A DNA stretch of 63,125 bases, filler included, from Reclinomonas americana ATCC 50394 (lineage: Eukaryota), in NCBI GenBank assembly GCA_048213135.1. It is 9 parts of 9 records of this genome, joined end to end, with 100 filler letters (N's around TTAATTAATTAA, not from the genome) between each part and the next. Parts side by side here need not be neighbours in the genome. Positions count along the whole stretch, not along the records: positions 1 to 19,738 come from AFZH01019798.1; positions 19,839 to 23,521 come from AFZH01019801.1; positions 23,622 to 28,584 come from AFZH01019802.1; positions 28,685 to 36,239 come from AFZH01019805.1; positions 36,340 to 41,580 come from AFZH01019807.1; positions 41,681 to 50,285 come from AFZH01019809.1; positions 50,386 to 53,429 come from AFZH01019810.1; positions 53,530 to 60,645 come from AFZH01019811.1; 1 more part is not named here. One strand, 5' to 3'. The position numbers and the translations under genes were made by a program. A model generated the notes under the pieces. That model saw only the letters and a program-made list of their open reading frames with translations. It was not told the DNA's origin and searched no databases. Positions 477-59,940 of this stretch are shown piece by piece (within the stretch, counting starts at the first letter, position 1; each line of letters begins with the position of its first letter).

Positions 477-2722
477 GTGTTGCGACTGGCAAATGCAAAC
501 AAGCCCGTCACTGGATCCTCCGACACCGCACCTCCCCCTTCTCCTCCTCCTTCACCACTGCCACCACCAGACAAGTCATCCGCACAGTACACTGCACAAC
601 GAAGCAAAAGTGTGAGTGAGGAAACACACCAAAAAAGAGATAGATGCTGTTGTGCACACGCCTTCCACGTGCTCATCATCGGCAAACGCGACATAGTCGG
701 CGCCTGCAAAGGTGTACCAGTTGGGCGAAGGCAGCAGGCATCGCTGTGCGTGCAGACGCCGCATGACAAAAGTGGAAGGATGGACACTAGTGTCCTGCGT
801 GCTCCTCCTGTCTCTGTCTGTGCCATGTTGGAAGAGTGCGTAAAGGCAGTGGTGGACCGCAGCGCACAGTCGCTGCAGCGATTCACACAGGCCATGCTCA
901 CAAGTTATGAGAGGGAGAGAGGAAGGAGTTTTTTCCGGCACTCACTCACACTCACTGTGTGTGCATGTGCGTATGTGCGCAGGTGCCATGGAGGATCGGC
1001 TGAGGCTGGCAGGCGAATCCGCGCATGTGGATGATCTGCTGCGAGTGCTGCTGAGTGTGTTGTGCAGTGATAGTGTCAGAGGTGGCGGTGGTGGTGACGA
1101 TGATGATCCACGTGTGGCTGCTGCTGTTGCACTGTGGGTGACACTGTATGGTATGCGCGTGCATGTGTTGCTGCATGGTGGTGGCCCAGCTGATCATGTG
1201 CGTGTGTGTGTGTGTGTGCAGAGAACAAGCCAGCGAAATGCGCATTTGCCATGATGAATGGTCCGAGTGCCGTGGTGCGGCTTCTGGAGACCTGCTGCTC
1301 CTCGTCGTCCCCTCGTGCCTCTGTGCTGTTGTCGCCGCTGATGGGAGCCGTGCGTAATGCGATTGCCGCGTGTCACATGGCTGTCGGCGACTTTGTGGAG
1401 GCCGGAGGGCTGGAGGTGACGCTGCGTGTGCTGCGCGAGTCGACGGATGTGGCGGTGCGGGTGCACGCGGCCGCCATTCTTCGCAACCTGACGCACGGTG
1501 CGTGTGTCTTGGCTGCTGTCGTGCGTCCGCCCCTAGAGGGAGACTCACCTTCAGCAGATGACGACGTTCGAGCGTGGTTGTCGGACGTGGACACGGTGTT
1601 TGCCACGCTGCTCGACATGTTGCAGTGTCATCAAGTGGACATTGCACGAGAGGCGGTGTGCGCCGTGCACAATGCTGTCAGCAGCTGCGTGTGGTGGTCT
1701 TTTCTCTCCCTCTTCGTGTGTCGTGCACTGACGTCGCAGCAACCACACAGAAACGCAGCGCAATGCACGCGCGCTGCGTGATCTCGGCATCGAGGACCAC
1801 ATGACTGCTCTCGTGAAGGAGTTCCCCGATCTGGCGCCCTCGGTGGAGAATGCGATGAAGAGTTTCGTGGCGCCGTCGACTGCGAGGTGCTGTTGCAAGT
1901 TTGGTGACCATTTTCTCTGCCGGTGACAGTCATCAACCGGCTAAAGGCGCAGCTGTTCTTCGACCCCGCCAAGAAGGGAACCAATGCACGACTCTCCGGA
2001 GAGAATCTTCACCTCCGTCGCCTGGAGGCGTCACCGTCTCCGTTCATGAACTCGGTAGCCATGATTGCGGAACCGCTCCCAGTTGTGTTATTGTGCCGCA
2101 GCTGGCATGAAAAGAATCGTGAGACCGCTGAATCAATCGCTTACACCACCACTGCTTGTGTTTGTCAAATGCGTAGGAGCTGTGCGAGGCTGATGAGAGC
2201 GGGAATGTGGTTCACGTCGAATTCACGGTGCGAGTGCTCCACATGCAACGCGGTTGGAGTGGTGCTCTGTCAATCGGATTCACCAACGCACCGCCAGACA
2301 CGTTCGAAGTGCCCTCCACTTGCAGTGGTACGATGTTCGCGTGTGCCCTTCAATAGGGCGCTACGTTCCTCACTCCTGCCTGCCTGCACCTCACAGGTGT
2401 TCCCGGTGTCGTCACGTACAGCGATTCTGAAGAACGGGCGATAGGGTCGCTGGTGGGCATCCGGCTGTACGCGGACAATGTGGTGAGGCCAGTGGTGAAC
2501 GGCCAACTGTTGGCGCCAATAGCCAACGAACGAGTGGTGGTAACACGACCTGTGTATGGCGTGGTGGACACGTACGGAAGGTGGGAGACCCGTTCATCTT
2601 TTTCTGCGTGTGCGCAACACGTGCTCTTCTCACTCGCATCCTCACGATTCCACAGATGTCACCACGTTACTCTCGATCTCTCCGACGCGGCCAACCAGCC
2701 ATCGGGGCAGCTTCAGTTGTAG
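477..2722 (+). CDS. Armadillo-like repeat protein with C-terminal Neuralized homology repeat (NHR) domain; spliced, 5' end uncertain
   Basis: ARM-like helices (FVEAGGLEVTLRVL...VRVHAAAILRNLT). Spliced NHR motifs: GTNARLSGENLHLRR, FTVRVLHMQRGWSGALSIGFTN, GSLVGIRLYADNVVRPVVNG, VYGVVDTYGRCHHVTL. Stop TAG ends at 2722. Confidence 0.75.
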
Positions 2723-2801
2723 CAGCCGAGCAGACAAGGAAAAATGCATGCCGATGATGTCGATGCAGCATGTTGTGCTTCGTTTTTTAATTATGGTTAC
2801 A

Positions 2802-5800
2802 TCACCACGGGTGATTGGTGTCACTCGCGAATACCTCCAGTGCTCTCACACTCAAGAGGTTGCGTTGCGATGGCTGCGGAACTGGTATTTGCTGTGGCTG
2901 TTGTTGTTGTTGTTGTTGCTGCTGCTGCTGCGATTGATGGGGGGAGCTCTGGTGCAGCGGTGTGGCAACAAAGGACTGCGGCGATCCAAAGCCCGACATG
3001 CTGATGGGTGACGCTGCGCGACCGCGCACAGATGGTGGTGGCGGTGGCGGCTGCGGCTGTTGCATTTCTGGAGTCTCATAGAGACTCACGACGACTCCGT
3101 TGTCGATGCGACCCGTAAGTAGGTAAGCAGTCTGCGTGTCCGTCTCTTTGATTTGCACCTGCCGTTCCTCGAAGGCATAGTCGGAGCAGACGAGTTCGTA
3201 GGTGGCGGAACTGACTTGCAACTGCATCGGCTCACTGGTGCTTTCCATGCTCGATGCCATGTACACAGTGTCTGGTGCGTGGAGCGAGGTGAGTACAACA
3301 TGGAAATTTTTCGTCTGCGATGATTGGTGTAACTCACCGCCCCACAAGTCCCATTGGAAGCGTTTTCGACCAATCACACCGGCTGTGACCGGCCCGGTGT
3401 GGATGCCCACGCGAACCTGCGTCCAGCGAGAAAAAAACTGTGAGTACACTGTGATTTGTGGCCGCGGTTTGTCTCTTGTTCTCACCGATATGAAGTTCTC
3501 GTACGCAATGGTGATGAACCCGATGGCGGCCTCCACTAGGTTCCTGGCCGCTTCAGCAGCGCTGCCAACGTCACCAGCCTGCAGACCGCTGCACGCCATG
3601 TAACAGTCGCCAATCGTTTTGACCTTGATGACTTCTTGTTCGTCGGCGATTTCGTCAAACATGGAGAACAGCGTGTCGAGCAGTTCGACGAGCTCAATGG
3701 ATGAGATGTTGGAGGACAGCTCGGTGAATCCTGGAGATGAAAGGCATTGAGAAACTCAACAGCGATACGCGGCTCGTGCGACATTACGCGAACACCAACC
3801 AACAATGTCAAGGAACCTATTGGAACAGGGCGCGATGAGTTTCGGGAAGGCGCAAGAGTCGAGCGGGACAACAACAAGAGGAGACGCAACAGCACTGAAG
3901 CATACTCGTGGATTTCAGCAATGGGTCGATCGTTGCCGTGCACTTGCAACTGAACCGCCACTCGGCTCGGAAGAATGTTCAGCAGCAGTTCGTGCGACTT
4001 GAGCTTCTCCTCTTCCAGCTGCTGCTCCCGCTTGAGTTCGTTCGTGCGGTCGTGGAAGAAGCACGTAAATACTGGCGTGGAACCAATGTATCCGAAGTGG
4101 AACGAGATCTGTCACGACGCGCAAACACTGTGAGCAACGTATACAGAGGAGCGACTTCTATACAACTCACCCACACAGGAAACATGCTGAAGCGTGGCTT
4201 CGTGTACTGTACGTGTGGCTGCGTATCAACGTCGTCATTCCACAGCTCTCTCTCCCCGAGAGTGTCCGCATCCAAGACAGACGCATCAGCATCTGAAACA
4301 AACGAATCCCAGTGGATGCATGTCATCTGTGCCGAAAAATCGGCTGTGAGGCAAGTGTCGCCCAGTAAGCTCAACTGCGAACACACGAACCTGTCGCTTG
4401 AATGCTCGAGAAGGCGCACGACTCTTGAGGAATTCCTGGACCTCCAGACGAATTTCGTTCAGGCTGCGCTCGTCAAACACTTGCTTCATCTGGTGACAAC
4501 ATGCAAGCAAGTCAGTCAGGGCTGCTGAGGAAGATTATAGGTAGCACTCTCTCGCACCCCATCGCCCAGCAAGCGCGTCGCAGGCAGTCCAAGCAGCACT
4601 TCGGCTGCCTTGTTGAGCTGTCGAACACAGCCGTGCTCGTCAAACTCCATGAAACCGTCGGCAGCAGTGCTGAGAACTGTCAACATCTTCTGATGCTTCT
4701 CCACCACGGCTTTGGCCAGGTCTTTGCGCAGGGTGTGCGCGTCGTCAGCCACATATGCGTGAATTCGTGGTACCGAGTCGATGACGGCCAGAGGCAGTTG
4801 CAGCAACAGATTTGTCGTGTAGCGCATCTGGCAAGAGAGAGAGAGAAGCTGTCAACTCCAGCGCAACGGAAGAACACCATCTCAAGCAAACACTCACCAT
4901 GTCACTGAGCTCGGCAATGAGGGGACGCCACACAAACCAGAAGAGCAGAAAAAGCAAGCACAGTGCCGCACACAAAGCAACGATGCTGAGTGTCATGTGC
5001 CATGTCGTGGTGTTTTGGTACAGCTGTGTGCGAACAGTGAGCGAGTGTATTCTGAAACTGGCACCACTTGCGAACAGAAAACGCACCACCATGGTCTCGG
5101 CGAGCATCATCTCCGTTTGCTGTTGCTCGAGCATGATAGCGTTAACTGAAAAAGCACGTAAACACGTGCGTGAGTAAAGGTGGCAGATTATGCAGTGTGT
5201 TAGGGGAGAAGAATCACAAACTTAAGGGATTCCACTCCGGCACAGCAAGGAGGTCCGTGCCACGGATCGAACTCCGCTGGAGCAGCGACGATGCCAGTGA
5301 GAAGACGGTGTGGAGTGTGGTATCCAGGTTAGGCAGTGGTGTGCATGGCGACAGGGTGGGCAGCCAGCACTCGCCCACGAATAACTGATGAAAGCACTGT
5401 CAGCAGCACGTGCAGAAAACAATGCCAAACTGAGCGAAGGTACACAGACCCTCTCAAATCCTGGACTGCGGTGCAAGAGGCTCGACGATGGCTCGCCGTT
5501 GCCAAACATCACGCGATCCCACGCCGCCCGCGCTGAGGATAGAGTGGCCGCAGTGCCTTCCCTGTGTGTACATGTAGTGATTGCTTGAGCCCTTCAAGCA
5601 GAAACGAGTATTGCAAATGTCAGAAACAGTGCCACACACCGCACATCAGCTTCCGCCGCTTTCGTATCGTACGCAAGTCGGATAATATCGTTTGCCAGCA
5701 TCGATGTCAGCAAATCGATATGCTGTATCCACTTCAGTGGTCGCCATTGCAGTACGAACGAGACACAATTCACATACCGCAGTTGCCAGAGCGTCACCAC

Positions 5801-28684: not shown

Positions 28685-28755
28685 ACAACAACAAAGAGGA
28701 GGATAACGTACATTGCATGCATTTCTCATGTGGACTCTTGTCTGTGTTGGTGCAG

Positions 28756-31700
28756 GAGCGACGACTGCATGCCGAGTGCACGTTTGATGTGGACGGGCAG
28801 ATTGCGGGTGTGACGCCTGTGCGCTTTCGTGGATACACCAAGGACTGCTTGATTTTGACCTTTTTCGATGCAAAGGTCTCTTCCTCTTTCACACTCGTTG
28901 CTCTGTCCGTTCATTGTTCACTGATGCCGCTGCGATTAGATCTCCATTGTGGAGTTTGATGAGAGCGCGCGTGAGCTGAAGACGCTTGCTCTTGTGTTTC
29001 TCGAGTCGGACTTGTACAAGGTTCATTGCGTGCGATCACTTCGGCTTCACTTCTGCCTCACACTCGATTGTGTGTACCAGGAGGGACGCACAGACTTCCG
29101 CACGCCGCCGCCTTTGCGTCGTGCCAAGGTCGATCCGTCGGGCAAGTTGGCCACGTGGATCATCTACAACACCAAGCTGGTCATCTTGCAGTTCGAGGAC
29201 GTCGATGACTTGCTGGGTGAGAGTTGTGCGTGTGTGGCTGTCGTGCATGTTGTTGTTGTGACAGAGCGTGGGCAGGCTTGGCGGGCATGAAACCTGCGAG
29301 TGGATCGCGAGAGGATCAATGTCCGCTGCAGAACTATTACGTGGTGGATCTGCCGACGCAACTGGGCGTGAGGGTGCGTTGTGGATGCGGTGTTTTTTTC
29401 CATTGCTTGCGACTGTGTTGACGAGTTGGGTTGCAGAACGTAATTGACATGACGTTCTTGCACGGCTACGTAAAACCGACACTGCTCATGCTGTTCGAGC
29501 CGAGGCCGACGACCACCGGGTACGTTCTTGTGGAGGAGATACGCTGCGCGCGTTTCATGTCTTCCTCTAACGCTTTCTCGTTCCGTGCTTGTCGCCTTAC
29601 TCTTGGGCTTCTCGCGCGTCGTCTCACTCGGTGCTTCTCGCTCGTCACCTCACTCCCTGCTTCACGCTCGTCGCCTCTCATGCGCTTCTCGCTCGTCGCC
29701 TCACTCCATGCTTCTCGCTCCTCGCCTCTCGCTCCGTGCTTCTCGGTTGTCGTCTCACTCCATGCTTCTCGCGCGTCGCCCCACTCCGTGCTTCTCGTTT
29801 GTCGCCTCTCACTCCGTGCTTCTCGTTTGTCGCCTCTCACTCCGTGCTTCTCGCTCGTCGCCTCACATACGCTTCTCGCTCGTCGCCTCACTCCATGCTT
29901 CTCGCGCGTCGTCTCACACTCCCTGCTTCTCGGTTGTCGTCTCACTCTGTGCTTCTTGCTGTTCGCCTCCCTCTGCGCTTCTCGCTCGTCGCCTCATTCC
30001 CTGCTTCTCGCTTCTCGCTTCTCGCTCCGAGCTTCTCGCTCGTCGCCTCATTCCCTGCTTCTTGCTCGTCGTCTGACTCCGTGCTTTTCGCTTGTTGCCT
30101 TACTGTGCTTCTTGCTGTTCGCCTGTCACCCCTGCTTCTCATTCGTCGCCTCTCACTCCGTGCTTCTCGTTCATCGCCTCACTCCATACCCTTTCCCCTT
30201 CACTGTCATCTCATTCCGTACTTCCCACAGCCGACTGCCCGCCCGCAAAGACCCCATGGTTGTGGCGTGCGCGTACTCCATCGGCATTCCCGAAATGCAT
30301 TTCCCCGAGTTGTGGGCCGTACAATATCTGCCCTACAACTCGTTCCTCGTGCATCCCGGACCAGTGCCTGCAGGTGCACAGCGCGCTCTCCCTCTCTCTC
30401 ACTCTCACTCGCATTGTCCCTGATAATATTGTTGTGCGCAGATGGAGCGATCGTGTATTCCTCAAACGCAGTATTCTACATCAATCAGGCCACTGCCGTG
30501 TGTGCCACCACCAATGACTTTGCGTTGGACACGGTGGCCGAGTTCCACGAACCGAGTTGCGATGCTCGGTGATGTGATATAGTCCTCACATCTCTGTGTC
30601 TCATGGAACGCGTCACGACAGAGCGCTCGAAGCACGACTTCCTGCTGGCCAATTGTTCCACCTGCCAGATCTCGTCGCGTCAGTACCTCCTCTCGTTGTA
30701 CAATGGCGATCTGTTGCGTCAGCGCGCGCTTGTGCTCGTTCTTCATGCCATCTCACATCGCCTCGCCGATGCACAGGGTGCTCATGCATCTCGACGCGGA
30801 CGCACGTGGAGTGCACAACTTTGAGTTTCAGCGCGTCGGTACCAGCGTTCTCTCTTCGTCGGTTTGCGACTTTCACCGACATGATTCCACGCTCTGTATC
30901 CCTCGCTCATTTTCACCACTTTTTAGTTGTCCCGATTCGGTCTGCGTCACGTGTTTGTCGGATCGGCACTCGGCGACCCCGTGCTCTTGGAGTTCAACGC
31001 CATTGGCGGTCTGTACTCCCCTTGCATGTATGCGCTGCCTGTATAGAGACAGCTGATTGACGGGCATTGCAGGTGAGAATGAAATGAGCGACGAAGCAAA
31101 GAGACATCAGCACGCGACACGATCGAGTACCGTGGACGAGGAGCTGGAGGACATTTTCGGCACCTCCGAAGCGTCGTCTTCATCTCTCGTTCTCGGTGCA
31201 GGCAAGCGATCAGCAGCGACTGCTGTTGCGTCTCTTGATTCACAGACATTGCATTGCATGTGTTTGCGTGCCTTCTGACTGCTGTTGTGTGCGCGTTGCA
31301 GGCTGCGACCGCGGACGGGCCGTTGCAGAAGCGCGCACGCGCGAGCAGTTGCGTTCCACGACCGCCGCTGTCAAGTGTCGGTAGTCGACCTTCTCACTGC
31401 TTTCCGCACAGATGGTGGTCGCCAAAGAGGATTGGGAATCGCCGTGCAAGAGGATATCGACGACGAGGCAGCATTCCTGTTTGACGAAGCCGGCACTGAA
31501 TTCACACGTGACAAGGTGCACCTCCTTTCATCCTCCCTCGTTTCCCCGCGATGTCGCTCACTCATTCGCCCTCACACACAGCACACGTCCATTATCTTCA
31601 CGCGGCGCGCGGAGGATGAGGTGCCTGGCTCGACTCTCACGGGGCACGTGATGCAGTATGACTGGCGAGTGGTGGACTCGCTGCTGAACATTGGTCCCAT

Positions 31701-34700
31701 TGGTGAGCTGGCGGTGGTGCAGGATCCAAGTGCGCGACACAATGTCGTTGGCGAGGTTCGCGCGGCCTGTGCGTTTTTTTGAAGAGAGAGTGAGCGCTGA
31801 CCGTCGGGCGTCGTGCGCAGCATTTGAGGAGAGAGATTGTCACGTGCAGCGGTTTCGGCAAGAATGGTGCCCTGTGCTCGCTGCGGGTGAGTCTCCATTG
31901 ATCTGCTCTTTTCCCACGTCCCTTTGTCACTCACCCACTCTTGTGCACAGCGGAGCCTGTGTCCAAGCGTGATGACCGAGTTTCCACTCGAATCGTGCGT
32001 TGGCCTGTGGACCATCAAGTGGCGTTCGTCGAGCGGTGCCTACCCGGCGCAGCACACGCATCTCGTCATCTCGACGCGCCACGCCTCGCGAGTGCTGGAG
32101 TGTGGCGAGGACATTCGCGAGCAGAATGCAGTCGTATTCGATCGAGATCACAGTACGCTGGCCGTCGGCACCGCCTGGGATCGCACCGTGGTGCTGCAGA
32201 TCACCAACAGGTCGCTGCGCCTGCAGTCACAAGGTTTTTCGTGCCTATCAGATAGAAGCGGGCTCTTGTTCCGTCAAGTGACACGTGCTCGCAGATGAAA
32301 TCATTGACGAAGTGGTCATTCCGGAGGGTGTGCACACGGCGGCCGTCTACGACATGTATGTGGCCATGATTCTCTCCACTGGATCTCTGCAGATGTACAT
32401 GGCGAACAGCACGTCGCACAGTCTGCAGCGCATCACTGGCGGCGCGTCCATGTTGTTGGTTTGTGTTTGCTCTCCATGCCATGCTGATGGCTGCTCTTCC
32501 ATTGTACTCACCCGCCCGGCACAGGCCAACTCGCGGTGCACGGCCGTCAGTCTGTTCTCGTCTGAACGAGGTGCGGGGTTTGCGTGTTTTGTTTCCTGGT
32601 TTCTGCTTTCATGAACTGAGTCGATTCAATGTCCCCCCCACGTCAGATGGCCGAACGCAAACAGTGCCAGTGCAGTTTTGCGCCGTGACCTTCGCTTCGG
32701 GTGCCCTGGAGGTGCTTGCGTGTATTGTTGATCTTGTGCGTGTGTGTTGCGCGCTTCTCACTCCCGACTTGCCAGATTTATGCGATTCCCGAATGCCGGT
32801 GTGTGTTCCGCGCCGCCACGTTTGCGAGTGGCAGCCCGACGTTGGATTCGTCGGCAGACGATGCGACCGCTGCGCCGCTGCATCGGAGAGCCGTTGTCTA
32901 TCCCTACGTGCACCAGTGCAGTGCCTTTTACTGCGGTCGCTCGCTGTACATGATGGTTTGCTTGTCGCCACGCACACAATAATTGTCATCTCGCATCTCT
33001 CTCTCACTCTCTCTTTTGCGCCCAGGGTTTGCTGTCGGACGGCGACTTGCTGGTCTACAAGGCATTCCTGCCTCCCATCCGGGAGCTGGTCACGGAGACG
33101 GCCGATGTGCGCCTGGGGCACACACGATTCGTGCGGCGTACCGTGCCGTTTATGACTCGCTACGAGGTCTTCCAGCAACAACAGCAGCCCATGCCGGCGG
33201 GCGCATCTTCTGCCGCAGCGGCAGCGGCGGCAGCAGCAGCAGGAGCCTCTTCTGCACGAGGCAGTTACTTGACTGCGGACATGTTCCGGCTGGATGTCGA
33301 TGAAGAGGACATGGGAGACGAGGAAGAGGGCATGCCTGTTGACGGTACGCAGGCGATACAGAGGAGAGTAGGAGGAGAAAAATCAAGCTCACCTTTATGC
33401 TGATGCAGCTCCAGTACGACCCATTTTCTCGCCGTCCGTGTCGCCAATGCCGCATGCTGTTGTGCCATTCAACGGACTCAGCGGCGGTCACTCTGGCGCA
33501 TTTGTGTGCGGTCCGCTGTCCGTGTGGGTGCGTTGTTGTGGTCGGCTGCAACCTGCATTGAGCTTCTGTTGTTGATCAGTGTCGTGTCGTCCCAGGCGTT
33601 TTACGATCGCGGTCTCATGCGCTTCCACCCCATGGACTCGCGTGCTGTGTCGGCGTTTGCTGCGTTGGACACGGCCGTGTGCGAGTCCGGTTTCGTGTAC
33701 TGGTCACAGGCCGATGTTGCGTGTTTGTGTTTGTTGCTAATGATCGATGGTCGTGCCTGACGGTGTGGTGGTGCAGAGCCTGTTGCGTATTGCCCAATTG
33801 CCATCCGATGGCACCACGGTGTTGTCGTACTGGCCAACTAGAAAAGTCAACATTCGCGCGACGCCACGCAAGATTGTCTACCATCCACCGTTGCGCTTTG
33901 TGGCATCTTGTGCTTGATGGTGATGGATGGCGGTGACTCACCAGCGTGACACACAGTCGCAATGCGTTTGTGGTGGCCATGGCCAATCAGGTCCCCAGAA
34001 AACGACCTCAAGAGAATGGTGGTCTACCGCAGAAAGAGGATGGTACGTGCGCGCAGCAGCAGTTGTTTTTTTTTATTCTCGCAGCAGTCGCTCACATGCT
34101 TGGGCACAGAACCGCGATCGCGCAAGCCGCCAACTGGTCGCTTGCCCACGCCCATGGACAACGAGTACTCGTTGACCGTTTTCAATCACGATCTGGTGGA
34201 AATGGATCGGTGAGCGCGTGGAGAGCAAGGTGATGGAAGAAGAGTGACTCTTATACGTTGTTGCAGTGTGCCACTAGAGGAGGAGGAGGAAATCACGGCG
34301 CTAAAGGTTTGCCTGCTGCGCGGTGATCCGGCTGTATTCGGCATGCGTGTCACGCATCTGCCGTACATTGTCATGGGCACGACGACACGCCTTGGCGAGG
34401 ACTTTACTTGCAAGGGCCGAGTTGCGTCGACTGCAATGCAGAGCATCGATGTCCATGGGCTCGTATTCCTGACAAACACCCGTACCGACACATGCAGTTG
34501 TCTGTGTATGACATTTTCGAAGACACAAACACGACGTTGGAGGACGAGTCGCACCCGATCAAGCTGAAGCTGGTGGCGGAGAAGCGTGGCTTCTCCGGTG
34601 CGATCAGTGCCGTATGTCAGATCGACGGGTACATTTTCCATGCCGTCGGTCAAAAGGTTCGATTGTATGAGGGGGCAGTGAGAGTGTGCAGAGCGCTGAC

Positions 34701-36058
34701 GCATGTGCGTCGACAGACATTTGTGCACGCCCTCGACTGGGACGAAAAGAAACTGGTGCCAGTGGCCTTCTTTGACGGCCAAACCTACGTCTCCACCGCC
34801 TGCTCCATCAAGAACTACGTGGTGTGGGGAGACATGCTAAAGAGTGTGTGGATGCTGCGGTGGAAGGTCTGTCTTTGTGTCTGCCGGTAAAGAGATGTTG
34901 ATGATGTTGATTTTTTCACTCACCGACATGCACACACACGACAGGAAATGCCGCAAGAGGGCGACATCATCTCACGAACACTGACGCTGATGGGCCGCGA
35001 TCTCACTCGCTTGCACGTCATGACCACCGAGTTTGTCATGTGCGGCGAGCAGCTCGGTGTGCTGGTCGGCGACCTCTCGCACAATGTGCAAGTTTTCCAG
35101 TTCCTCCCGCATCGTTGCGTTTTTTTCTTTTTGGAGGGAGTTTTGGTGCACGGCGCGTGACGCACGACTGGTGCACAGATGTGGCGAGTTACAATGGTCG
35201 TCGATTGATTTGCGTGGCGGATTTCCACGTCGGCAGTCTCGTGACGTGCGTGGAGCGAGTGCAGGTGGATCCAGTGACACCGCGGTTGGGGGTGGTGGCA
35301 GGTGGGTGGGGGAGGAAGGAGGGGAGAGAGGGGAAAGGGAGGGAGGGAAAGGGAAGAAGGGGGAAGGGGAGAGGAAGGGAGGGGGAGGGAAGGGATGGAG
35401 CGAAAGGGAGGGTAGTAAGGGAAGAGAGAGAAAAGGGGAAGGGGGAAGGGAGGGGTGGGAAGGAAATTAAGTGGGATTGAGTGCGAGAAAGAGACATAGG
35501 GAAGAGGCACAAACGAACTTGCACACACACAGGAAAAGCAGGAGGGACGGTCAGTGACTGAGTGCGAGTAAGATACTCAAGAAAGAGGCACACACACACA
35601 CACACGCACACATACACACAAACACAGAGGGAGCAGGGGAGAGAGAGAGAGCAGGCCGAGAGGGTCGCCAGAATGGTGTGGGAAAGAGGATGATAGACAC
35701 GTTGAGGGTGATTGTTGCTTGTGCGACACTGTCGCACTGGAGGCAGGGAACGAACAGGGAGACGAGTGCACAGTGGATTAGCGAGAAAGAGAGAAGCAGG
35801 GCAGATGAAGAGAGGCAGTAAAGTGACAACGCTCGTAGTCACCGCGATATCTCGACGGCTCTCTTTCTCCTTCTCCGACTCCCTCCCTCCCTCTCTGCAC
35901 GACTCCGCTCACACCCCTTCCATCGCAGGCACAAACCGCGGCGCCATCTCTGTCCTCGTACCCGTACGCTCCGGCACCCACCGGCGACTGACGCAGTTGC
36001 AGACACGCATGACTGTCACCCTCCCACACAGCGCCGGCCTCAATCCCAAAGCCTACCG
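28756..36058 (+). CDS. CPSF1: Cleavage and polyadenylation specificity factor subunit 1 (CPSF160), partial at both ends
   Basis: DCLILTFFDAKISIVEFD, NVIDMTFLHGYVKPTLLMLFEP, DSLLNIGPI, TCSGFGKNGAL, GEDFTCKGR, LVPVAFFDGQTYV..IKNYVVWGDMLKSV, RRLTQLQ..LPHSAGLNPKAYR. Confidence 0.96.
29587..30190. repeat. Intronic minisatellite, ~26-nt unit GCTTCTCGCTCGTCGCCTCACTCCGT, roughly 20+ degenerate copies
   Basis: Direct tandem copies without unique spacers inside the CPSF1 intron (about 29520-30230). Confidence 0.92.
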
Positions 36059-36339: not shown

Positions 36340-41580
<5,241 letters not shown>

Positions 41581-43312: not shown

Positions 43313-46300
43313 TCACAGATAATCGGCCACGAAGCTGGCGAACTTGAGTTCGGCGTGCACAAAGGCCTTCTCGTCTCGCAAGCCGTGTCGCTCTGTGGGG
43401 TACACTTGCAGGTCGAACGGTTTGAGGTGGCGGATCATGTGGCTCAGGAAGACCTGGCTGTTCCGGAAGTGCACGTTCTCGTCAATGAGGCCGTGCACCA
43501 GCAGCAGGCGGTGCTCCCTGTGTTTGTTGTTGTTGAGACAAGAGAGAGGTGAATGAGGGGGGAGAGAGACGACGCGCAACTCGTCGGGAAAGTTGGGAAC
43601 GTAGGTGAGCACGTCGCCACGGCGGTAGGCGTCGGGGTGTGCCTGGGGACTTTAGTGGATAGAGGTGAGGTGAGGAGGCGATGCCACGCCAATAGGAGGG
43701 ATAAACGCAACGTTCCCATGTAGCGCTCCGTGTAGCCAGTGTCGTACAGCTCCCAGCGTGAGACCGGGGCGCCACTGATCGCCAGCTGTGCGGTGTGTGC
43801 GATGTGAGTAAGCGACGAGGAGAAGTGCACGGCAAGGAAAGAAGCGAACTTTGAAGATGTCAGAGTGCTGGCCGAGCGCCATGAGGCTCATGTAGCCGCC
43901 TGCGAGCGATGTACGTGAGACGAGAAATGCACGACGAATACGGAGAGATTCCAGCGCACCGTACGACCAGCCGTAGATGGCGACGCGTGACAAGTCAACG
44001 AGACCGCGCGATGCGAGTTCCTGTTTATGATTCAGACTTTGGAGGGGGGATTGGACTCACGGGGCGGCAGACTCACCCGCAAGCCGTCGATCTGGTCGTG
44101 CAGCTCGAATGTGCCCATGGCGTGCTTCAGCGGTGCCTCAAAGCCGAGTCCTGAGCGATGAATCACGCAGAGGGAAACATGGAGAAGTGAGGCGCGAGGA
44201 TGCGGAAAGAGGAGGGAGAAGAGCAGAAGCGCGGAAGTGCGAGTCATCACAAGTGCAAGGCAAAGGAGAGTTGGAGTTTGCGAGGACAAGGAGGGCGCAA
44301 CATACGCAGATGGTCGACATCAAACATACACACCAAGTCGTGCGTGTCACGGACGCAAGGAGGAAAGGATCACAAACGAGCGATGAACGAGAACAAGATC
44401 AGAAGGAGAGAAAGCGAATTCAGAAGGAAACAGAGACGTCGTATCACACTCACCACGGCGGTACGATCCGCGTCCGTCGATAATGACGCACACATAGCCG
44501 ACGGAGGAGTACAGTTGCATCTTCAGCATCACCGTCAGCGAGTAGAAGTTGCGCACGATCTGCAGGGGGCGTGAGAGAAACACAAAACTCGTGACTGCCG
44601 ACCACAAAACACAAACCTGCACGTGCGGGCCAGCGTACACGTACAGCAGTGTCGGGTACGACTTGGAAGGGTCGTGGTCTGGTGGCAGGTAGTACGCGCC
44701 GTTGATCTTGGTGCCTGCGACGAGAGGTGAGGAACACAACAACATTGTCTCGGCACTCCACTTGTGGCGCGCACCATGGCGATTGGCAAACTCAAAAAGC
44801 TGTGGCGGACGCGGGCGCAAGTCGGTCTCCGACACGGCGGCCTGATCAAAGGCCAGAATGGGAACGATTTGCTGAATGTCGGCAGCAGAGCCGTCGCTGT
44901 GAGTGGAAAGCAAGTGAGCACACGGACATTGACGGATAGTTATGAGTGCAGTAGCGACGAGAACCTGGCAATATGATACACGGCAATGTGTGGCGTCTGG
45001 GTGATGCTGGACGAGACGCACGCAAAGTACGTGTTGTCGCTGTTAAACGTCACCGACTCGTGGTACATGTGTGCACACGATAGCCTGTATGCAGAGGGTA
45101 AGTACAGATTCACTGTCTGCTGATTGATAAACGCACCTCGTCACCGGTCCAGGTTTGTCGCCAGCGAGTGGCGCCACGTACACGTGCGATTCCAGCTCCG
45201 TGTCCTTGGTGCCCTCAAAGAACACGAGCTGCGCAGAGAGAAGGGGGGTGAGCGACAAGGCAGCAGTTCATTCAGTGAATACGCACAACGCACCCTCTTC
45301 GCGGTGTCGATAATGACCCGACTCGACGGCTCCACTTGCCAGCCGTCGCCGTCGGTCAGCAAGCGCTTGGCCGCCACCTGTTGCGCTGGTTCAGAACACA
45401 TGTACACACACGCACCAGAGCACACACAGACATATGCGCGCACGCACCTCACTGCCACCCAACCGAATGTCGAGCAGCTGTCGGAAACCAGTGTCACCCT
45501 CGGTGGACATCACCAAATGCTGCACATGGCTCTCCGGCTCCGTGTACCACTCGTAAATGTCGGCAATCTGCAGTTACACGATGGTATGAGCATGCTGGGC
45601 CAGCCACCTTGCGCAACAGATGCGTGCGCGCCGCAACATTGATCCACACGTCCGTGCTCTCCTCGTGCAACACCACGGCACAGTCGGCTTGAATGGCAAA
45701 CGTGTGCACGACATCACGATCCGGGGACATGGCCACGGGGATGACATCCGTACGTGCCGACTCCAGTGCCGCGAGAGGCATGTACACCACGGCACCGTTC
45801 TGCTGCTCCCTGTCGAGCATGTGCAACCACACGCTGCGTGCACATTCAAACGAAGAGATGAGTGGCCTCCATCGTCGAGCAGCATACAACACCTAATAGC
45901 CAGCATACCCTTCTCCCGTGCCGTCGAAACCGAGACGCGGCACGTACTCCATCCACTCGAAACACGCATACAACCCGTCGAGTGGCATCATGTGATTGTG
46001 CACCGCCTGCACGCGGCTGAAATCGGCGGCCAGTGTGACGCGCGCCCACCCCATCGAGGTCTTGCAGTTCTTCTCGCCAGCACGCGGGTAGGTGAACGAG
46101 TCGCACTCTTGGAGGGAGACAGGAGCATGAGGGAGAAGCGACGAGGTGGCCGATCGGGAGGTCAACGCAACTCGGCGACTCATCACCCGCGGCAATCTCC
46201 ACCTGCGGGACGCCATCGTCGTCCACAATCGTGTACAGCACCTGAGCAGTGATCCACGAAGAGTGAACAAATAAGGCGCGCCTGTCGATGAATGCACACT

Positions 46301-47255
46301 CTGTCGCCGCCTCCGCAACATCATACACATGCGCGCCGTCGGCTGCGGTGTCGATGCGCGGCGAGATCCAGAAACCAACGTATCGGTCAAACTCCTCCTG
46401 CGTGATGTAATCGGCCGTACCAGCATACGCACGAGCGCCATACTCCGCCACCACATGGGTGACTTGCACAGTTGGCGACGGTGCCGCCGCACTGGCGTCC
46501 ACGGCACACACATGCAGCTCGCCTCCACGCGTAAACACACACAGACGACAATCGGCAGACAACTGCGGCTCCGACATGTCCTTTGGCAGCGGCAACAGCG
46601 CCGGTCCAGCCTCCTGCACCCTCAATGCATGAGCGAAAAGCTCAAAGACCATCATGATACCACATAAAGCGTGACCTTGTTTGCCATGTCCAACGAGTAC
46701 AGCTCACTCCCGTTGCGCATAATGACCGCATTGGTACTGCATAGTTGTAAGGTGAGACCCACTGTGCAGCAAGCAAGAGGGGAGTTGCTTGCACACACCG
46801 TGACTTGTAGCTGAACTCGGTCACTCCCGTGGCCACCTGACGCTGCCGCTCACGTGCCAGCTCCTCCTCGCGTGTAAGCTGTCGCCTGGTGTCGCCTACC
46901 TGCGCCACCAGCAGCGAGGGTGCCTCTGCACACAACTGAATGAGCACACACACAGACCGTGATTGATGATGAGACAACTGCAACTCACCAATGTGCGAGT
47001 CAGCTGCGTCCAGCGAGTACAGCGAGCGAATGCCCAGTGCGGTGTTGTGGTTGGTGAACAGAAGCATGCTGTGCGCACGAGTGAGCATGAGTGTGTGTGT
47101 GAGAGAGAGAGAGACAGAGAGAGAGCTCACCCGTCACCAGCAAACTTGAGTCCCGAGGGCTTCTGTGCGGCCAGTGTGCGCAGGCTCATGCCCGACTGCA
47201 CAAAGGCCTGTCGCTCAGCGCGTGTCATGTGCGACAGACGAGTGCGCTCGCTCAT
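43313..47255 (-). CDS. Dipeptidyl peptidase 8/9-like (S9B)
   Basis: QLTREEELARERQR, ADYITQEEFDRYVGFW, YPRAGEKN, YVYAGPHVQ, GWSYGG, YDTGYTERYM, HGLIDENVH, YPTERHG. Catalytic triad intact. Confidence 0.95.
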
Positions 47256-51614: not shown

Positions 51615-51747
51615 CGGAAGGAAAAAAAGAAAGCGAGAAAGCTATGCGCGACGCGACTGCTGCAATTGAGTTTTTGGCGTGAAAGTGCGGCGATTTTGCT
51701 GAGTTCAACTTTCACAATTAATCTTCCGCATCGCAACAACGACGATA

Positions 51748-52168
51748 ATGTTTGGCTTCTTCACTTCGTTGAAGGAAAAGGTGTGGCGGTTGTTGTGCTG
51801 AGTGATTCCAGCCTCAAATTGGTCACACACATTCACACACACTCACAACTCACACACACTCTTGTCTCTCTCTCATTCTCACACACACTCTTGTCTCTCT
51901 CTCTCTCTCTCTCTCTTGTCTCTCTCTCTCTCTCTCTCTTGTCTCTCTCTCACACGTGCGCTCTCAGGGGGCACAACTGCTGGAGACATACAAGGAGGAC
52001 TTGAATGATTTCGTGTCGCAGACCAAGGAGATGCTTGCAGGTGGTGCAGGTGGTGCAGGAGACGCGTCTGTGCCAGGGGATGGTGATGATGATAGTCGCG
52101 TGATTGTTGATGACAGTGGAGTGGCGATTGTGGTGCGGGAACACGTGGCGGAGCGGCGGCGTGGTGAC

Positions 52169-52200
<32 letters not shown>

Positions 52201-52343
52201 TGTTGGGGAGGAGGATGAGGAGGAGGGGGAGAATGGCGAGGAGGGGAGGCGGAGGCGGTCGGTGGATCCGGGGTTGGCCAAGTTGCGGGAGATGGGAGAA
52301 GGGGGAAGGAGAGGGAGAGGGGAGACGGGGGAAGGAGAGGGAG

Positions 52344-52374
<31 letters not shown>

Positions 52375-52531
52375 CTGAGAGTGAGAGAGTGAGTGAGTGA
52401 GTGTGGGAGGGAACGAGAGAGGGAGTGTGTGTGGTATGTGTGTGAAACATGAGTTGTCACGCGAACTGCATGTGCAGTTGGAGGCGATGAACTGTGAGTG
52501 CTTGGTGTGGCATTCCCTGTGCTGTGTTCTC

Positions 52532-52570
<39 letters not shown>

Positions 52571-53892: not shown

Positions 53893-53966
53893 AAGCTGCA
53901 GTATCATCATCATACGTACATGCACTACATTATGGGGCTCTCAATCTCTCTCTCTCTTTCTCCACA

Positions 53967-56900
53967 TCATTCGACGTATCCGAGGCACATGACGGCGGTG
54001 CGGTAGTGGCCCGGCTCGTTCCACTTCTCGTCAATGGCCTGGCTGAGAGCGGCCACCGACGAGCGCGTGCTCAGCGTCTCGGCGCCCGGCACGCCCTTGC
54101 GGAAAACAATCATCCACATTTCCTCCTTGAGTGAGAAGGCGCATTGTGTGATGGCAAACGACTCCTCCCAGTACTCGTCGATCGTGTTGGCCACCTCGGC
54201 GTAGGTCTGGCGGAATTCAAAAGCCTCTGCCGACGACTGATCGCCTGCGAGCGTGACAAGAGAAATCGTCAGTCCCACTCTCTTTTCCCAGAAAATATTT
54301 GTCTCCGCACCTTGCGCGGTGGCCACGAGCCACTCTCCAGTCACCACCGAGCACGATAGTGCGGTGATGTAGTTGCGGTTGTCTTCCTTCCACTTGGTCG
54401 ACACAAAGGCCTCGACTTCCGGCTGATTGTCGCACACGTGAAACGACGGCTTGCAACCGGGCGCACGCTCCATGACCAGTGCCCATGAGCGCTGCGACCC
54501 ATGATGAGCTCCACACTCGCAGCTTCCGTGCCTCCCAATCTCTTACACACCTGGCCGTGTACTGCGAGAGCAATGGAATCGAAACCCGCATCCCACTGGC
54601 GGTGTATTGTGGCCACCAATTCAGTTTCCGGGCACGTCACAAAACATCGTTGCACTCCAGGAGCCAGCGTCTGGTGCACAGACATAAGGGTGAACGGTTT
54701 GATGTGGTATGGGAGGCAAGAGAAGATCGGTGACACGCAACATTGCCTGTGCACAGCCACTCGTCGCGTTTCGGTTCATACACGAGTCCCGTCACTGTTT
54801 GATGAATGCACGAGCATCAGGCATGAAAGCGTGAAGAGTTGCTGCGGAAGTCGCACACACAAACCGTACAGTCCGTCACGTTGCCAGTCCTCAACACGCG
54901 CCGACAGAGTCGTCAGATTTGCCTTGGTGGTGACTGCACATGAACCTGTGCGTCAACGTGGTTAGCAAACGTGCCAAGCATGAGCTGAAATGGGTGAACA
55001 GGACGTGCCTGCCAGTCCGTGTCGCATCACCAGGAAGAATTTGCGGTGCAGCTGTCGCCGTGGCTGCATACGATAAACGTGTCAGCGAAACGACTATCAC
55101 CCCACCTTCTCTCTACCTCGATTCACCTTGTCACGCTGGCGAGCAGCCAGTGGCGAGGCAGGAGGCGAGGTGGATGACATGGCGGCGGCGACAGCCGCGG
55201 CCGACACGGGATCGACAATCTTGGTCGTCGTCCCGCCGCCGCCGCCACCAGCAGCACCGGCCGCAGCACTCGAGGTGGCAGATGACGCCGGCGGTTTTGC
55301 AAACATGCTTTCGCTTGCTTCATCAATCGCTGGCGATGCCAGCACCACGTCGGCATGTGGTGTCTCACGTGCATAGGTCACCAATCGTGGTCGCTGTGCA
55401 GGAAGGAGTGGTGCTGGCGCGGCTGCCGATGGACCAGCATCAGCTGCGGTGCTCTCTGTCGGCGCAGTCGCGGTAGCGGCCACGGTCGTGGTGGTGGTAG
55501 CGCCCTCGGGGGCTCCACCGGAAACAGCAGTAGCGGCAGACGCAGCAGCAGAAGGTGGTGATGCTGCCGGGGCGCGCAACCGCTCGGGTTGTGGTGCGAG
55601 AGATTGTAGTTGTGCAGCCACCGGTGTGAATGCTGCAGCGCATGTGAGTCGACGACGCACGCACAACCGCTCACTCATTGCCAAACCACACGCAACGATC
55701 ACCAGCCCCGCCAAATGAAAAGGCGTCGAGATCTGGCGGCACGACGGTGAGTCCCGACGAGCTGCCCTGACGACCTGAGGGCGACAAGGCGGCACCGAGG
55801 CTCGGTCGCGAGACGCCAGTCGGGGCCGACGCCAAACGAAGCATTGCTCGCAACGATTCCGGCGCGGAGGTGATGGTGCCGGCGCGTGGATGTACTTGTG
55901 GTGGCTTGTCCGATTGCGACTCCTTCAGCACCACATCCGCCGTGAGTGAGCTCGAGTTCCACGGCGTCTGCCGACCGCTGGTGGTCAACCGCACGTCGCG
56001 TCGGACCTGCGAGGCACAACGATTCAGCAGGGGCGAGCGGATCACAGGGCAGAAGAGATCGGCCCGAAAACCTTTTTGAAAATCGCCTCAATGTCGAGGT
56101 CGGGTGTGGGCAGGTACTTGAGCATGGCCTCCATGTATGGCGAGTGTTCGCCGGTCCCGTCGAAGGCCACCTTGCCGGGCGAGGTGGAGAAACCAATGAT
56201 GAAACCGCACGCCGTGTCGGGCACATCGATCTTGGCCAGACCGGAGCCGGCGGCACGCGGCATGTTCTTCAGCGGTCGCCCAAATGGGTTGTTGCGGCAG
56301 GCGTCGAGGAGCACGCAACATGGTCCGTTGGTGACGGTTTCAGCCAGGCAGTCCAGCAGCCACGAGAAGCTGACGCATGAGTGCACCATCTGGGGGGGGG
56401 GGGGGTGAAAGGGGAAGGGAGACGATGAGAGGATCATTCGACAGGAATCTGGGCGAGAAAGAGTTCCGAGTAATGGATGAGTGTGAGTAAAGACTCGACG
56501 ATGAATGGCCTGAGGATGCAACATACGCTCACAGGCAGGGCGAGGAAGAGCACAGGAGAGTGTGGAGGAGTGTCCCGGTGACGGATAGGCACGATTAAAG
56601 ACCAGACGATGCATGCCGAAGCGTGAGGTATGCATTTGTGAGAAGTCAAAGACCTCACAGCCAGAGTGCGAACGAACGGAGGAGAGTGCCGAGGAGTGTA
56701 GTGAAGACGGGTGGGTGCGAGTATCGCTGGACGAGTGAGGAAGGACGATGAAGAGTACAGCATGAGATGTGCAATCATTCAAGTTGAGCGAGGCGCCATG
56801 CGCGATCACGATCAAGATCCACATACGCAACATCAGCCTGCAGCTCCAAATGCCCCGTGCCCAGCGGCAACAAGTAGTTCTCGCCCTGCACCTGGAACGC

Positions 56901-57324
56901 ATGCCCACTAAAGTAGAAGAACGCCGTCGAGTCGGCCGTCAGCTTCGACAGCCACTCTCGCACACCCGTCTCAATCTGCCAACATGACACTGAGACGAAT
57001 GCGGTGACAAGAACGCGCTTGATCATCATGCCTACCTGTCGCCGATCGGCATCAATGACTAGCACGACCTCAAACTTGAGCTGAACGAGCAAGTCGCGGA
57101 GAGCAACTGTGTGAAAGTGAGTGAGCGAGTGAGTGAGTGAGTGAAGGAAGGAAGGAGGGAGAGAGCGAGTGAAGGAAGAAAGGAGGGAGAGAGTGAGTGA
57201 GGGAAGGAGTGAGTATGTGCATGTGTGTGTGTGTGTTACCTGCATCGGCTGGAGGGTTGCGCAACGGCGAGTGCTCATAGTTTCCATTGCCAATGATGAG
57301 TGCCGCAGCAGAGCGTGAACTCAT
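53967..57324 (-). CDS. Peptidase C14 (bacterial-type/paracaspase-like caspase domain) + Pro/Ala linker + C-terminal Trp-containing tandem repeats
   Basis: ALIIGNGNY..LRNPPADA, FFYFSGHAFQVQGENYLLP, LLDACRNNPF, FSTSPGKVAFDG..HSPY, VRRDV..TSGRQTPW. C-terminal repeats of the form ..W..G..IT.L....W.V. Confidence 0.9.
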
Positions 57325-57404
57325 CTTCTTGCTCACGAAGACAAATGTTCCGGTTGACACATGACAAACCGACAGGACACCGCGACGCGATACATACTTG
57401 GCGA

Positions 57405-59195
57405 ATGACAAGCGTGGCTGAGCAGCACACGCAAGTCGAGCGACTGGAGAAGCTCGTCGAGGCATTACAAGAGGGCGTTGCGTTGCCCCTTCTCTCTCAA
57501 ATCGCGCTCTTTTCCTTACTTTTCCCATGCAGCTGGATCACGCCATTCGCGATCGCGATGGCGCCTACGACGCACTGCACTGCCTCTTCTTGCAGATGGA
57601 CGATGCAGACGACACAGCACGACGGTATGTCACTCACGCGCACTCTCCCTCCACACTTCCCTCTCTGAGACTCACTGGGCGGCAGATCGCTGCAACGAGT
57701 GATGCGCGAGGTGCAAGAGTCGACGCAGTTCTGGCGCGTAAAAGTGCACAACTATGTGGTGTTGGCGGCGCGGTTGGAGTCCATGAAGCGATCGGCGTCG
57801 CAGGTGGCACAGCACATGGAGCGCAAGGAGCACATGTTTCAGCGGAAGCTCGTCGAGCTCATGGAACAGCTGACTGATATCCTTCATTGTCTACTGTCAT
57901 CACTGTCTTTGCTGTTTGTTGTCTGCGTCGAACTTGACTCGTCGTTGCGTGCACCAAAGGAGGCCGACATACAGAGACTGGTGCGCGCCAATCAGCAATT
58001 GCAAGACAAGTGGTCGGGCGCCAGTTGCGCGTTTTTTGCTTTCTCTGTCTCTGTGACGCGATGTTGACTGGCGGTGTGTGTATGTGTAGAGCGGCGCATG
58101 TCAGAGTTCACCGAGTCGCTGCAGGTGCAGATGCAGCAGCAGGCGGCGCACACGGATTCGTTGGTGGCGGAGCGTGATCGACTCGTGCAGCTGGTGGAGG
58201 AGCAACGCGTGCACCTGCAGCGGCTGGAGCAGCTGCGCGTGCAGCAACAGCAATCACCCATGCCACCGCCACCACCACCACCACCACAGCAGCATGCACA
58301 GCCCGTCTACGCACCACCAGCACCGGCACCGAGTTCGTCGTCGGCGGCCGCCCTGGAAGAGCAACGGCGACAGCTTATGGCGCTGCACGATGAGCTGGTG
58401 GCGATCCAGGAGGACTATCGTGCTCTCTCCTCCTCCTCGTCATCCCAGTCGTCTCGGCCGACGCTGGCCGCCACCATGAGTACGCTCGCAAGCAGTTCAC
58501 CGCCGATGCAGGTGGCGATGCTGCCGGTGGCCGCGGCACCGCAGCCGCATGTGGCGCCGCCGGAACCCACCCGCGCCGAACCCGTCGGTCCACCGCGACG
58601 CAGTGCCGTGCAGCGCGTGGTGACCTCCACCGTGCCGTCGCCCGCTGCTGCTGCTGCTGCGTCGGACTCGCAGAGTGCTGTGTCGCCGCTCACCGTCACG
58701 CCACCGCGTGCAAGTCGCTCGCGCGCACCGCCATCCAGTGCCGACGGCGGCGGTGGTGGCACGCGGCTGCTCACCGAGTTGCAGAGCGACGAGACGTCGC
58801 CGGTGACGCAGCAGCAGCAGCAGCAGCTGGCGACTCGTCGACGCCTGCTCTCGCCAGCCGATAATGCCGCGGCGATACAGTGGCAGTCGCCGCCGAGCGC
58901 CGGTGGTTCCACGCGGTACCTCGAGCAGGACGATGAAGATGACGACGACGACGATGACGGCGGCTTTGATGATGGGCGGGGTAGGTACCGGAGGACGGTT
59001 GGCAGCATGTCGACCACGGCGTTGCCGTCGGAACGCATTTTGCAACATGACAGCGCGCAGAGAGCGACGACAGGAACCGCTGCGCTGCTGTCGACCTCGG
59101 TCGATTCGCTCATGATTGATTCGCCCATCACGCCGCTCAGTGCGGGACGCGGCGCCGGTCGAGGTCGCAGTCGAGACACCATGTCGGCGAGGTAG
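57405..59195 (+). CDS. Hypothetical coiled-coil protein with disordered C-terminus
   Basis: Heptad-rich exons joined by GT-AG introns (MTSVAEQHTQVERLEKLVEALQEG/LDHAIRDRDG...). Long terminal exon ends TAG at 59195. Confidence 0.7.
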
Positions 59196-59329
59196 CAGTA
59201 ATGAAACGAACTGAACAGGAGAAGAGGAGGAGAAGAGCAGCAGCGAGTATCTGCTCTGCAAGGCGTGGGTGGACGGGTGCGAGCACATTTCACTCCACTC
59301 GCTCTCCAGGTATTTTTTCTCTTCCCCGC

Positions 59330-59940
59330 TCACTTTCCGGCAACCTCGTTGCGGCCGACCACACGGCGCACATACAGCACCTGGATGATGGTCATGGTCA
59401 CCATGACAGTGGCCTCGATGAGCGCCCACATCTTCACGCGCAGGCTCGTCGAATCGGAGGCTGCGAGATGAGAGGGGAAGAGAGTTCAGGTGTTGCGAAA
59501 AGAGTGGGGAATGGAGAGCCACGAAACTCTGCTTGTGGCGGCGCTCACGCAGGCGCAGGTAACGCGTCTGCTTCAGCAGATCCTGGATCTCGTTGCCGAG
59601 GTTGCGAATGCGCTGCTGGATCCACGCCACGTGCACTGCATAGACAACAATGAGCGTCGGGGTGCGGGTGTAACAACTCAGCCTCTCCACAGGCACCACG
59701 CAACTCGTCTCCGCAGCCTCCTCCTCCAGCTTTGGCGGCTCCACACGCAGGGCCAACTCAGGCTGCGTGTCGGAGAACTTGAAGTCGAAGGCAACGGTCT
59801 TGGAGCTGCACGCAGAAAAAGGCACAGGGAGTGAGCACGTTATGCACACGGAGAAGGAGGAGGAGGGAGAGAAACGATGCACTCTCCATCAACTTCAGAG
59901 AAGAAAGCAGATGCGGAGCTCAACACAGTCTCGCATCCGG
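59330..59940 (-). CDS. emp24/gp25L/p24 (TMED) family cargo receptor, 5' end unresolved
   Basis: SKTVAFDF, coiled coil QTRYLRLRERRHKQTSDSTSLRVKMWALIEA, TM segment ending IQVLYVRR. Confidence 0.85.

Follow-up and report, generated by a model that had tools for sequence, protein, structure and literature searches.

Gene content and intron architecture of the window

We analysed a stretch of 63,125 nucleotides (nt) from Reclinomonas americana ATCC 50394 (assembly GCA_048213135.1), joined from nine parts of nine records and called the window throughout, and followed up an unusual 5' splice site (donor), GTTGCG, found at the start of many of its introns. The GC content of the window was 57%, and genes made of short exons lay close together along it. 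Pfam matches on open frames and exons identified an Arm-repeat gene, a large membrane guanylate cyclase (HNOBA and cyclase domains), a GH38 alpha-mannosidase, a DUF6691 protein, an Spt20-like protein, a protein of the CPSF1/DDB1/RSE1 family, a CaMKK-like kinase, a DPP4/8/9-like peptidase and a metacaspase. The intron density was extreme, with about 208 predicted introns in 41 kb of coding sequence. Intron size was narrow; 179 of the 208 introns measured 45-110 nt, mostly 56-81 nt.

Introns were predicted with a dynamic-programming gene finder. Its three-periodic coding scores were learned from the long frames of the window itself, and introns were modelled explicitly as GT..AG elements of 35-500 nt. 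A first run with flat donors, lacking both an acceptor and a length model, was too noisy and returned 62 introns. In the flat-donor run proper every GT received an equal score, and only the acceptor matrix and the length prior were learned, iteratively. This run returned 224 introns, and the top donor hexamer was GTTGCG (36), followed by GTGCGT (15) and GTGTGT (11). When a first-order donor model was added, 208 introns were predicted, 41 of them with GTTGCG. The gene models contained faults, as some genes were fused and some models on opposite strands overlapped. The filler letters between 19739 and 60745 formed eight pairs of 44-nt runs, 16 runs in all, with 12 nt between the two members of a pair, and are masks, not biology; some of the runs fell within genes and shortened the gene models (19794 and 41628 are examples).

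Abundance of GTTGCG donors

The original prediction had listed 29 GTTGCG donors, 17 on the plus strand and 12 on the minus strand, as members of a major donor class. All 29 coordinates read GTTGCG. The preceding base was A at 13, T at 8, C at 5 and G at 3 of them, which matches what was claimed, and the six GTGCGT donors given as ordinary examples were all preceded by G. The sibling sites GTTGTG (2082, 39877), GTTACG (42162, minus strand) and GTTATG (904) also read as described. Enrichment of the hexamer at donors was confirmed: 24 of the 29 sites were recovered as donors in the flat-donor run and 27 with the donor model. The two sites missed by the gene finder were 31225, which opens a 77-nt intron plausible by eye only, and 46319.

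Counted on both strands, GTTGCG occurred 110 times, compared with 66.6 (standard deviation 8.35) in 100 dinucleotide shuffles, none of which reached 110. Forty-one of the occurrences were predicted donors, and the other 69 corresponded to the chance level (22 sense and 22 antisense in exons, 11 within long predicted introns, 9 on the antisense strand of introns and 5 between genes). The heptamer GTTGCGT was a predicted donor at 27 of its 43 positions, against 21 of 113 for GTGCGT. GTTGCG accounted for approx. 21-24% of the introns in the window, or approx. 26% when relatives such as GTTTCGT and GTTGTG were included. The predicted donors of this general type were as follows.

904..59704, both strands: GTT..G(+6)-type donors, 52 predicted, of which 41 GTTGCG and 11 others (such as GTTTCGT, GTTGTG and GTTATG)

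Among these 11, at least one was wrong. Donor 29378 (GTTGTG) was a model error, a false shifted donor 4 nt from the true ordinary donor G|GTGCGT at 29374; with the latter, the intron 29374-29436 (plus strand) preserves the frame of a tblastn match at 29428-29517.

Besides GTTGCG, the shifted type had another member that recurred, AGA|GTTTCGT, which was seen at 1862 (plus), 41409 (plus) and 59527 (minus) in nearly identical context. This could be GTTCGT in T-shifted form.

Two donor populations and the last exon base

Donor classes were compared among the 179 short introns of the donor-model run.

G at +5: 106 introns; G at -1 in 93; T at +6 in 73
GTTGCG: 37 introns; G at -1 in 3 (A in 16, C in 10, T in 8); T at +7 in 26
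Other GTT..G(+6), namely GTTTCGT, GTTGTG, GTTATG and GTTTTG: 9 introns; G at -1 in 1 (A in 6)
Neither pattern: 27 introns; G at -1 in 18; A at -2 in 15 and A at -3 in 14

The two populations that had been proposed were recovered, in the form G|GTNNGT (class I) and H|GTTGCG(T) (class II), both cut at the GT. In GTTGCG donors the conserved G-T stood at +6/+7 instead of +5/+6, and the class was discrete with few intermediates. It was the commonest donor among the short introns. A G at -1 was found in 3/37 GTTGCG donors versus 93/106 donors with G at +5 (Fisher p=8e-19). The same contrast was present in the flat-donor run (3/34 versus 62/88, p=4e-10) and in the seven Pfam-identified genes (2/24 versus 54/58, p=7e-14). 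Since the donor model scores the -1 position independently of +3, the contrast was not created by the model.

The exon side of the class was also distinctive when set against the exon background. For GTTGCG alone, the 3/37 with G at -1 lay below that background (p=7e-4). When all GTT..G donors were pooled (n=46), G at -1 was depleted (4/46 versus a background of 0.32, p=2e-4), A at -1 was enriched (22/46, p=1e-4) and G at -2 was enriched (22/46, p=0.016). GA| was the commonest exon end (17/46). The two positions before the conserved G read GC in 37/46 of these donors compared with 27/106 ordinary donors, and the class is therefore not simply an ordinary donor plus a T. Donors with neither pattern, for example 28876, 31516 and 40627 (plus) and 46675 and 55126 (minus), had AAG| exon ends, the ordinary exon-side compensation; the GTT..G class was without such compensation.

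Position of the cut

To locate the cut, the junctions were compared with homologues and Pfam profiles. With the cut at the GT, nine junctions were gapless against homologues or profiles: 43711, 43580 and 45637 in the DPP-like gene, 39172 and 39369 in the kinase, and 30713, 33890, 34421 and 35114 in the CPSF1-like gene. Of the protein motifs that had been invoked for this cut, three held up, KLYL/VMEY and LKY/MH of the kinase by their Pkinase coordinates and YMGT/P of the DPP-like peptidase by gapless alignment. The alternative of a cut 3 nt downstream, at the GC (GC(+3) below), was disfavoured, being 5-6 bits worse at the DPP junctions or leading to a stop codon.

The DPP-like model was aligned with 25 full-length homologues, collected with its last exon, of which 12 were displayed. 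A profile was built from 28 homologues, and the model cut at the GT scored 626.8 bits against it. Shifting any of four GTTGCG donors of this gene to GC(+3) lowered the score to 620.6-622.0 bits, or gave a stop at 46171.

43650..43711, minus strand: GTTGCGT intron, DPP-like gene; phase 2, YMG-T-PQ; gapless in the 12 displayed homologues; GC(+3) 620.6 bits
43518..43580, minus strand: GTTGCGC intron, DPP-like gene; phase 2, FPD-E-EHRLL; gapless in the 12 displayed homologues; GC(+3) 621.6 bits
45568..45637, minus strand: GTTGCGG intron, DPP-like gene; phase 0, VWIN|IADIY; gapless, conserved WIN block; GC(+3) 622.0 bits
46108..46171, minus strand: GTTGCGT intron, DPP-like gene; phase 1; predicted with and without the donor model; GC(+3) gives a stop; variable protein region where homology is uninformative
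46242..46319, minus strand: GTTGCGG intron, DPP-like gene; 78 nt, in frame and stop-free; listed earlier, read through by the gene finder

When the intron 46242..46319 was removed from the model, the DPP profile score rose from 626.8 to 640.8 bits, a gain of 14 bits. In-frame, stop-free introns of this kind would escape annotation based on open reading frames.

In the CaMKK-like kinase the exon before 39172 aligned to CaMKK2 through its final residue, and the profile coordinates on either side of two introns left exactly one position for the split codon.

39172..39239, plus strand: GTTGCGT intron, CaMKK-like kinase; phase 1, KLYL-V-MEY; Pkinase positions 75 and 77 flank the split codon
39369..39435, plus strand: GTTGCGT intron, kinase; phase 1, LKY-M-HDN; Pkinase Y at 113 and H at 115, one position for the split codon
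38943..39005, plus strand: GTTGCGC intron, kinase; phase 0; gene-finder prediction only
39674..39737, plus strand: GTTGCGT intron, kinase; phase 1; predicted; variable loop where profile coordinates are uninformative

The kinase exons 39242-39367 and 38802-38942 gave no match in PDB, and the exon upstream of 38943 was without a Pfam match too.

For the CPSF1-like gene the junctions were judged against two usable homologues (P0039, P0041). The junction at 31348 lies in an unconserved stretch.

30556..30621, plus strand: GTTGCGA intron, CPSF1-like gene; phase 1; unconserved stretch; only the GT cut keeps the frame, GC(+3) leads to TAG
30713..30776, plus strand: GTTGCGT intron, CPSF1-like gene; phase 2, NGDL-VLMHL; gapless against P0039 and P0041
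33716..33776, plus strand: GTTGCGT intron, CPSF1-like gene; phase 0; predicted
33890..33956, plus strand: GTTGCGC intron, CPSF1-like gene; phase 2; gapless against P0039 and P0041; outside the earlier list
34421..34497, plus strand: GTTGCGT intron, CPSF1-like gene; phase 0; gapless against P0039 and P0041
35114..35178, plus strand: GTTGCGT intron, CPSF1-like gene; phase 1; gapless against P0039 and P0041; CPSF_A coordinates compatible; outside the earlier list

One further intron lies in the guanylate-cyclase gene. Its removal joins ..ASV-L-FLDIV-G-FTELS, and the cyclase profile begins at FTELS.

3817..3890, minus strand: GTTGCGT intron, guanylate-cyclase gene; phase 2; predicted with the donor model, absent from the flat-donor run

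Next to this intron we observed a 17-nt micro-exon, 3800-3816 (minus strand), which encodes LFLDIV in the cyclase catalytic motif and has a GTTGCG intron (3890) on one side and a GTTGGT intron (3799) on the other.

Among the 37 short GTTGCG introns the GC(+3) alternative ran into a stop in three. The phases of these introns were 14/11/12, and because all three phases are used, an invariant GTT at the exon end is not credible. Beyond the GT found 5 nt further downstream, no conservation was seen. We hold with high confidence that GTTGCG is a real donor class that is cut at the GT.

Comparison with ordinary introns and other intron types

Apart from the donor, GTTGCG introns resembled the introns with G at +5. 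Their length was 66.6±5.3 nt versus 66.5±6.2 nt and their GC content 0.55 versus 0.54. A CTSAY branch-like motif, scored as a motif only, was present in 32/37 GTTGCG and 74/106 ordinary introns, at a median of 17 nt from the 3' end in both. The acceptor was CAG in 32/37 and 98/106, respectively, and CAG, TAG or AAG in 37/37 of the GTTGCG introns. CTCAC/CTGAC-like motifs approx. 17 nt upstream of the CAG acceptor were observed in introns across the window.

U12-type introns have the consensus RTATCCTT at the donor and TCCTTRAC at the branch site. This type was rejected, as the donors here read GTTGCGT and the branch-like motif and its spacing were those of ordinary introns. GC-AG introns were rejected as well, since the GC(+3) models were 5-6 bits worse or hit a stop. 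We concluded that, as far as their sequence tells, the GTTGCG introns are a genuine and abundant class of ordinary short U2-type GT-AG introns.

Homologues of the genes in the window

The best matches of the DPP-like protein in a protein search were fungal, with 57% identity. The exon of the GH38 mannosidase gave two protein matches at 41-43% identity, and the CPSF1-like exon gave five matches in a representative protein search; for the read-through open reading frame of the CPSF1-like gene the homologue search gave no match. Close homologues of the genes at 17542-19794 (plus), 43313-47255 (minus) and 28717-35294 (plus) were absent from collections of 1.8-5.8 billion proteins, in which the best identities were 41-57%. 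A metagenome locus scan found no relative. Apparently the lineage has not been sampled or has not been annotated.

Upstream of the kinase domain, at 36344-38543 (plus strand), we observed a long low-complexity coding region with poly-Q, poly-A, proline-, glycine- and methionine-rich repeats. In the gene models this region was merged with both the CPSF1-like gene and the kinase, which makes the gene borders there uncertain.

Discussion

The original prediction had explained the GTTGCG donors by a shifted or a bulged pairing register with the small nuclear RNA (snRNA) U1, or else by variant U1/U6 snRNAs or relaxed proofreading; for relaxed proofreading the window gave no support in either direction. 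Of the two registers, the shifted one fits the statistics, namely the G-T at +6/+7, the lack of G at -1 and the preference for A at -1, while the bulged register is disfavoured by the depletion of G at -1. We give about even chances to the proposal that U1, and then U6, pairs with GTTGCG sites one nucleotide out of step. In this proposal the U1 5' arm, and afterwards U6, would lie one nucleotide out of step on the site, so that the +1G of the intron would fill the slot usually held by the exon-final G. The +2U would stand opposite a mismatch and UGCGU would build the helix. The catalytic core would still set the cleavage at the sole available GU, and the near-invariant GCG would be the price for the lost pairs. 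A shifted register makes two predictions for the exon side: the requirement for G at -1 is lost because the +1G takes its slot, and a preference for A at -1 is expected because this base would face U10 of U1. On the intron side, the T at +7 in 26/37 GTTGCG donors mirrors the T at +6 in 73/106 ordinary donors.

Several results weigh against the shifted register or the donor class on which it is built, or fall short of supporting them. With the textbook U1 arm, taken as printed in PMC4856993, RNAduplex gave the GTTGCG sites a mean of -1.4 kcal/mol versus -6.5 kcal/mol for ordinary donors, weak in every register; the organism's own arm may differ; only 4/37 of the minimum-energy duplexes with this arm had the +1G on C9. 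The preferred G at -2 (22/46) would face G11 in the shifted register, which it leaves unexplained. The composition at -1 in class II and that at -2 in class I differ only at p=0.07. Genes for U1, U5 or U6 were not detected in the window, where neither an snRNA nor any other Rfam family was matched at the gathering threshold or at E<=1. At the 33716 junction both homologues showed a one-residue gap beside the cut. Finally, the statistics rest throughout on a single 63-kb window and on self-trained gene models with some errors.

A second, variant U1 (or another dedicated snRNA), with an arm fully complementary to GUUGCGU and binding in its own canonical register, would give the organism two U1 specificities in place of a single U1 that uses both registers. 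The rigidity of the motif, with its seven nearly fixed positions and with GCG in 37/46 donors of the class, would suit such an RNA, as would the weak predicted pairing with the textbook arm and the discreteness of the class with its few intermediates. However, the remaining features of the introns are the same as in the ordinary class, a variant U1 alone leaves the preference for A and the depletion of G at -1 unexplained, and the Rfam search of the window yielded no snRNA gene. We regard a variant U1 as less likely than the shifted register, but as an explanation to be taken seriously.

Another possibility is that standard U1 and U6 keep their normal register and that the additional U, at +3 (or +2), forms a bulge. 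GT-T-GCGT is indeed the commonest ordinary donor, GTGCGT, with one U added, bulge registers exist in human (PMC4856993), and a bulge could serve the U1 and U6 helices alike. A bulged U keeps the exon-final base on C9, though, and so predicts the G at -1 that 93/106 ordinary donors have; it was seen in 3/37, significantly below the exon background. T-inserted forms of the other common donors (GAGT, GTGT, ATGT, ACGT) were moreover rare or absent. We therefore consider the bulge improbable.

It is very improbable that the sites were mis-modelled, with the true cut at GTT|GCG or GTTGC|GT or with GTTGCG as a coding or chance word. A GC(+3) cut would be in frame, the downstream GT was sometimes taken in the first flat-donor run (13442, 9658, 3885, 56826), and a good GTATGT follows 56831. 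Yet the GC(+3) cut was penalised by the DPP profile or by stops, the kinase profile coordinates fit exactly one residue, an invariant exon-final GTT is implausible with the phases equally used, the downstream GT has no conserved bases after it, and the surplus of GTTGCG in comparison with shuffled sequence matches the number of donors. A family of mobile introns (introners) that had spread recently and carried the donor, for which the uniform motif and the uniformly short introns could speak, is scarcely credible, because the introns sit in old conserved genes and GTTGCG introns share no more sequence than ordinary ones (mean longest shared word 5.86 nt in 666 pairs with ends trimmed, versus 5.84 nt in 1770 pairs from 60 of the 106 ordinary introns). 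Chance, a cut at the downstream GT, a cut at GC(+3), an introner family and U12-type introns were all rejected.

Returning to the shifted register, the near-invariant GCG suggests that this organism has a U1 arm which suits GCG better than the textbook arm does. Recognition would involve either a different U1 arm, or a second U1, or other factors. Donors of both classes would pair with an arm complementary to UGCGU, and such an arm would explain the rigid GCG. Somewhat short of even chances, we propose that this lineage has a two-register (or two-U1) code, in which about a quarter of the introns would be set by the G at +6, without an exon-final G, while the core still cuts at the GU.

Shifted and bulged registers between the 5' splice site and U1 have been proven in human cells, and the validated noncanonical registers together make up approx. 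1.5% of human 5' splice sites, according to the part of PMC4856993 covered here. The mammalian shifted-register sites described there share with the GTTGCG donors the GU followed by an extra pyrimidine, the G-U at +6/+7, the poor canonical match to U1 and the cleavage at the GU. They differ in having AAG where GCG is found here, and the GTTGCG class has an exon-end preference of its own, GA|; the U1 pairing, proven in human cells, is in our case a proposal. The difference in scale is large: one motif is the commonest donor here, with 37/179 short introns, compared with approx. 1.5% for all validated noncanonical registers in human. The bulge +2/+3 sites of the same paper likewise have one extra U after the GU and a downstream part like that of a normal donor, but they retain the -1G:C9 pair, whereas G at -1 is depleted here.

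The rhizarian Lemnamoeba sinaloensis resembles the window in its general architecture, with tiny intergenic spacers, approx. 13 introns per gene, introns of 82 nt on average and a GC content of 53%; for its splice sites only GT/AG (99.5%) and GC/AG (0.2%) are reported, and no donor classes are given in the parts of PMC13746701 covered. Plasmodiophora introns are shorter, with a mean of 55.7 nt in the part of PMC2483917 covered. A literature search for a GTTGCG/GUUGCG donor class returned only primers and unrelated matches among those listed, with supplements and subscription journals outside the search. What would be new, judging from the window, is a donor of a putative noncanonical-register type as the commonest donor; the registers themselves were already known.

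Noncanonical registers matter for the interpretation of mutations and for splice-site prediction. We predict that the 5' arm of U1 in this organism is adapted to GC, or that two U1 variants are present. If the shifted register is true, it would show that a splicing code can take up the pairing register of U1 and U6 as a routine feature open to selection, and the mis-annotation of such genomes by standard gene finders would be explained. The organism would then lend itself to studies of how the cut site is set independently of U1, as a natural system in which recognition of the 5' splice site is uncoupled from the choice of the cleavage site genome-wide.

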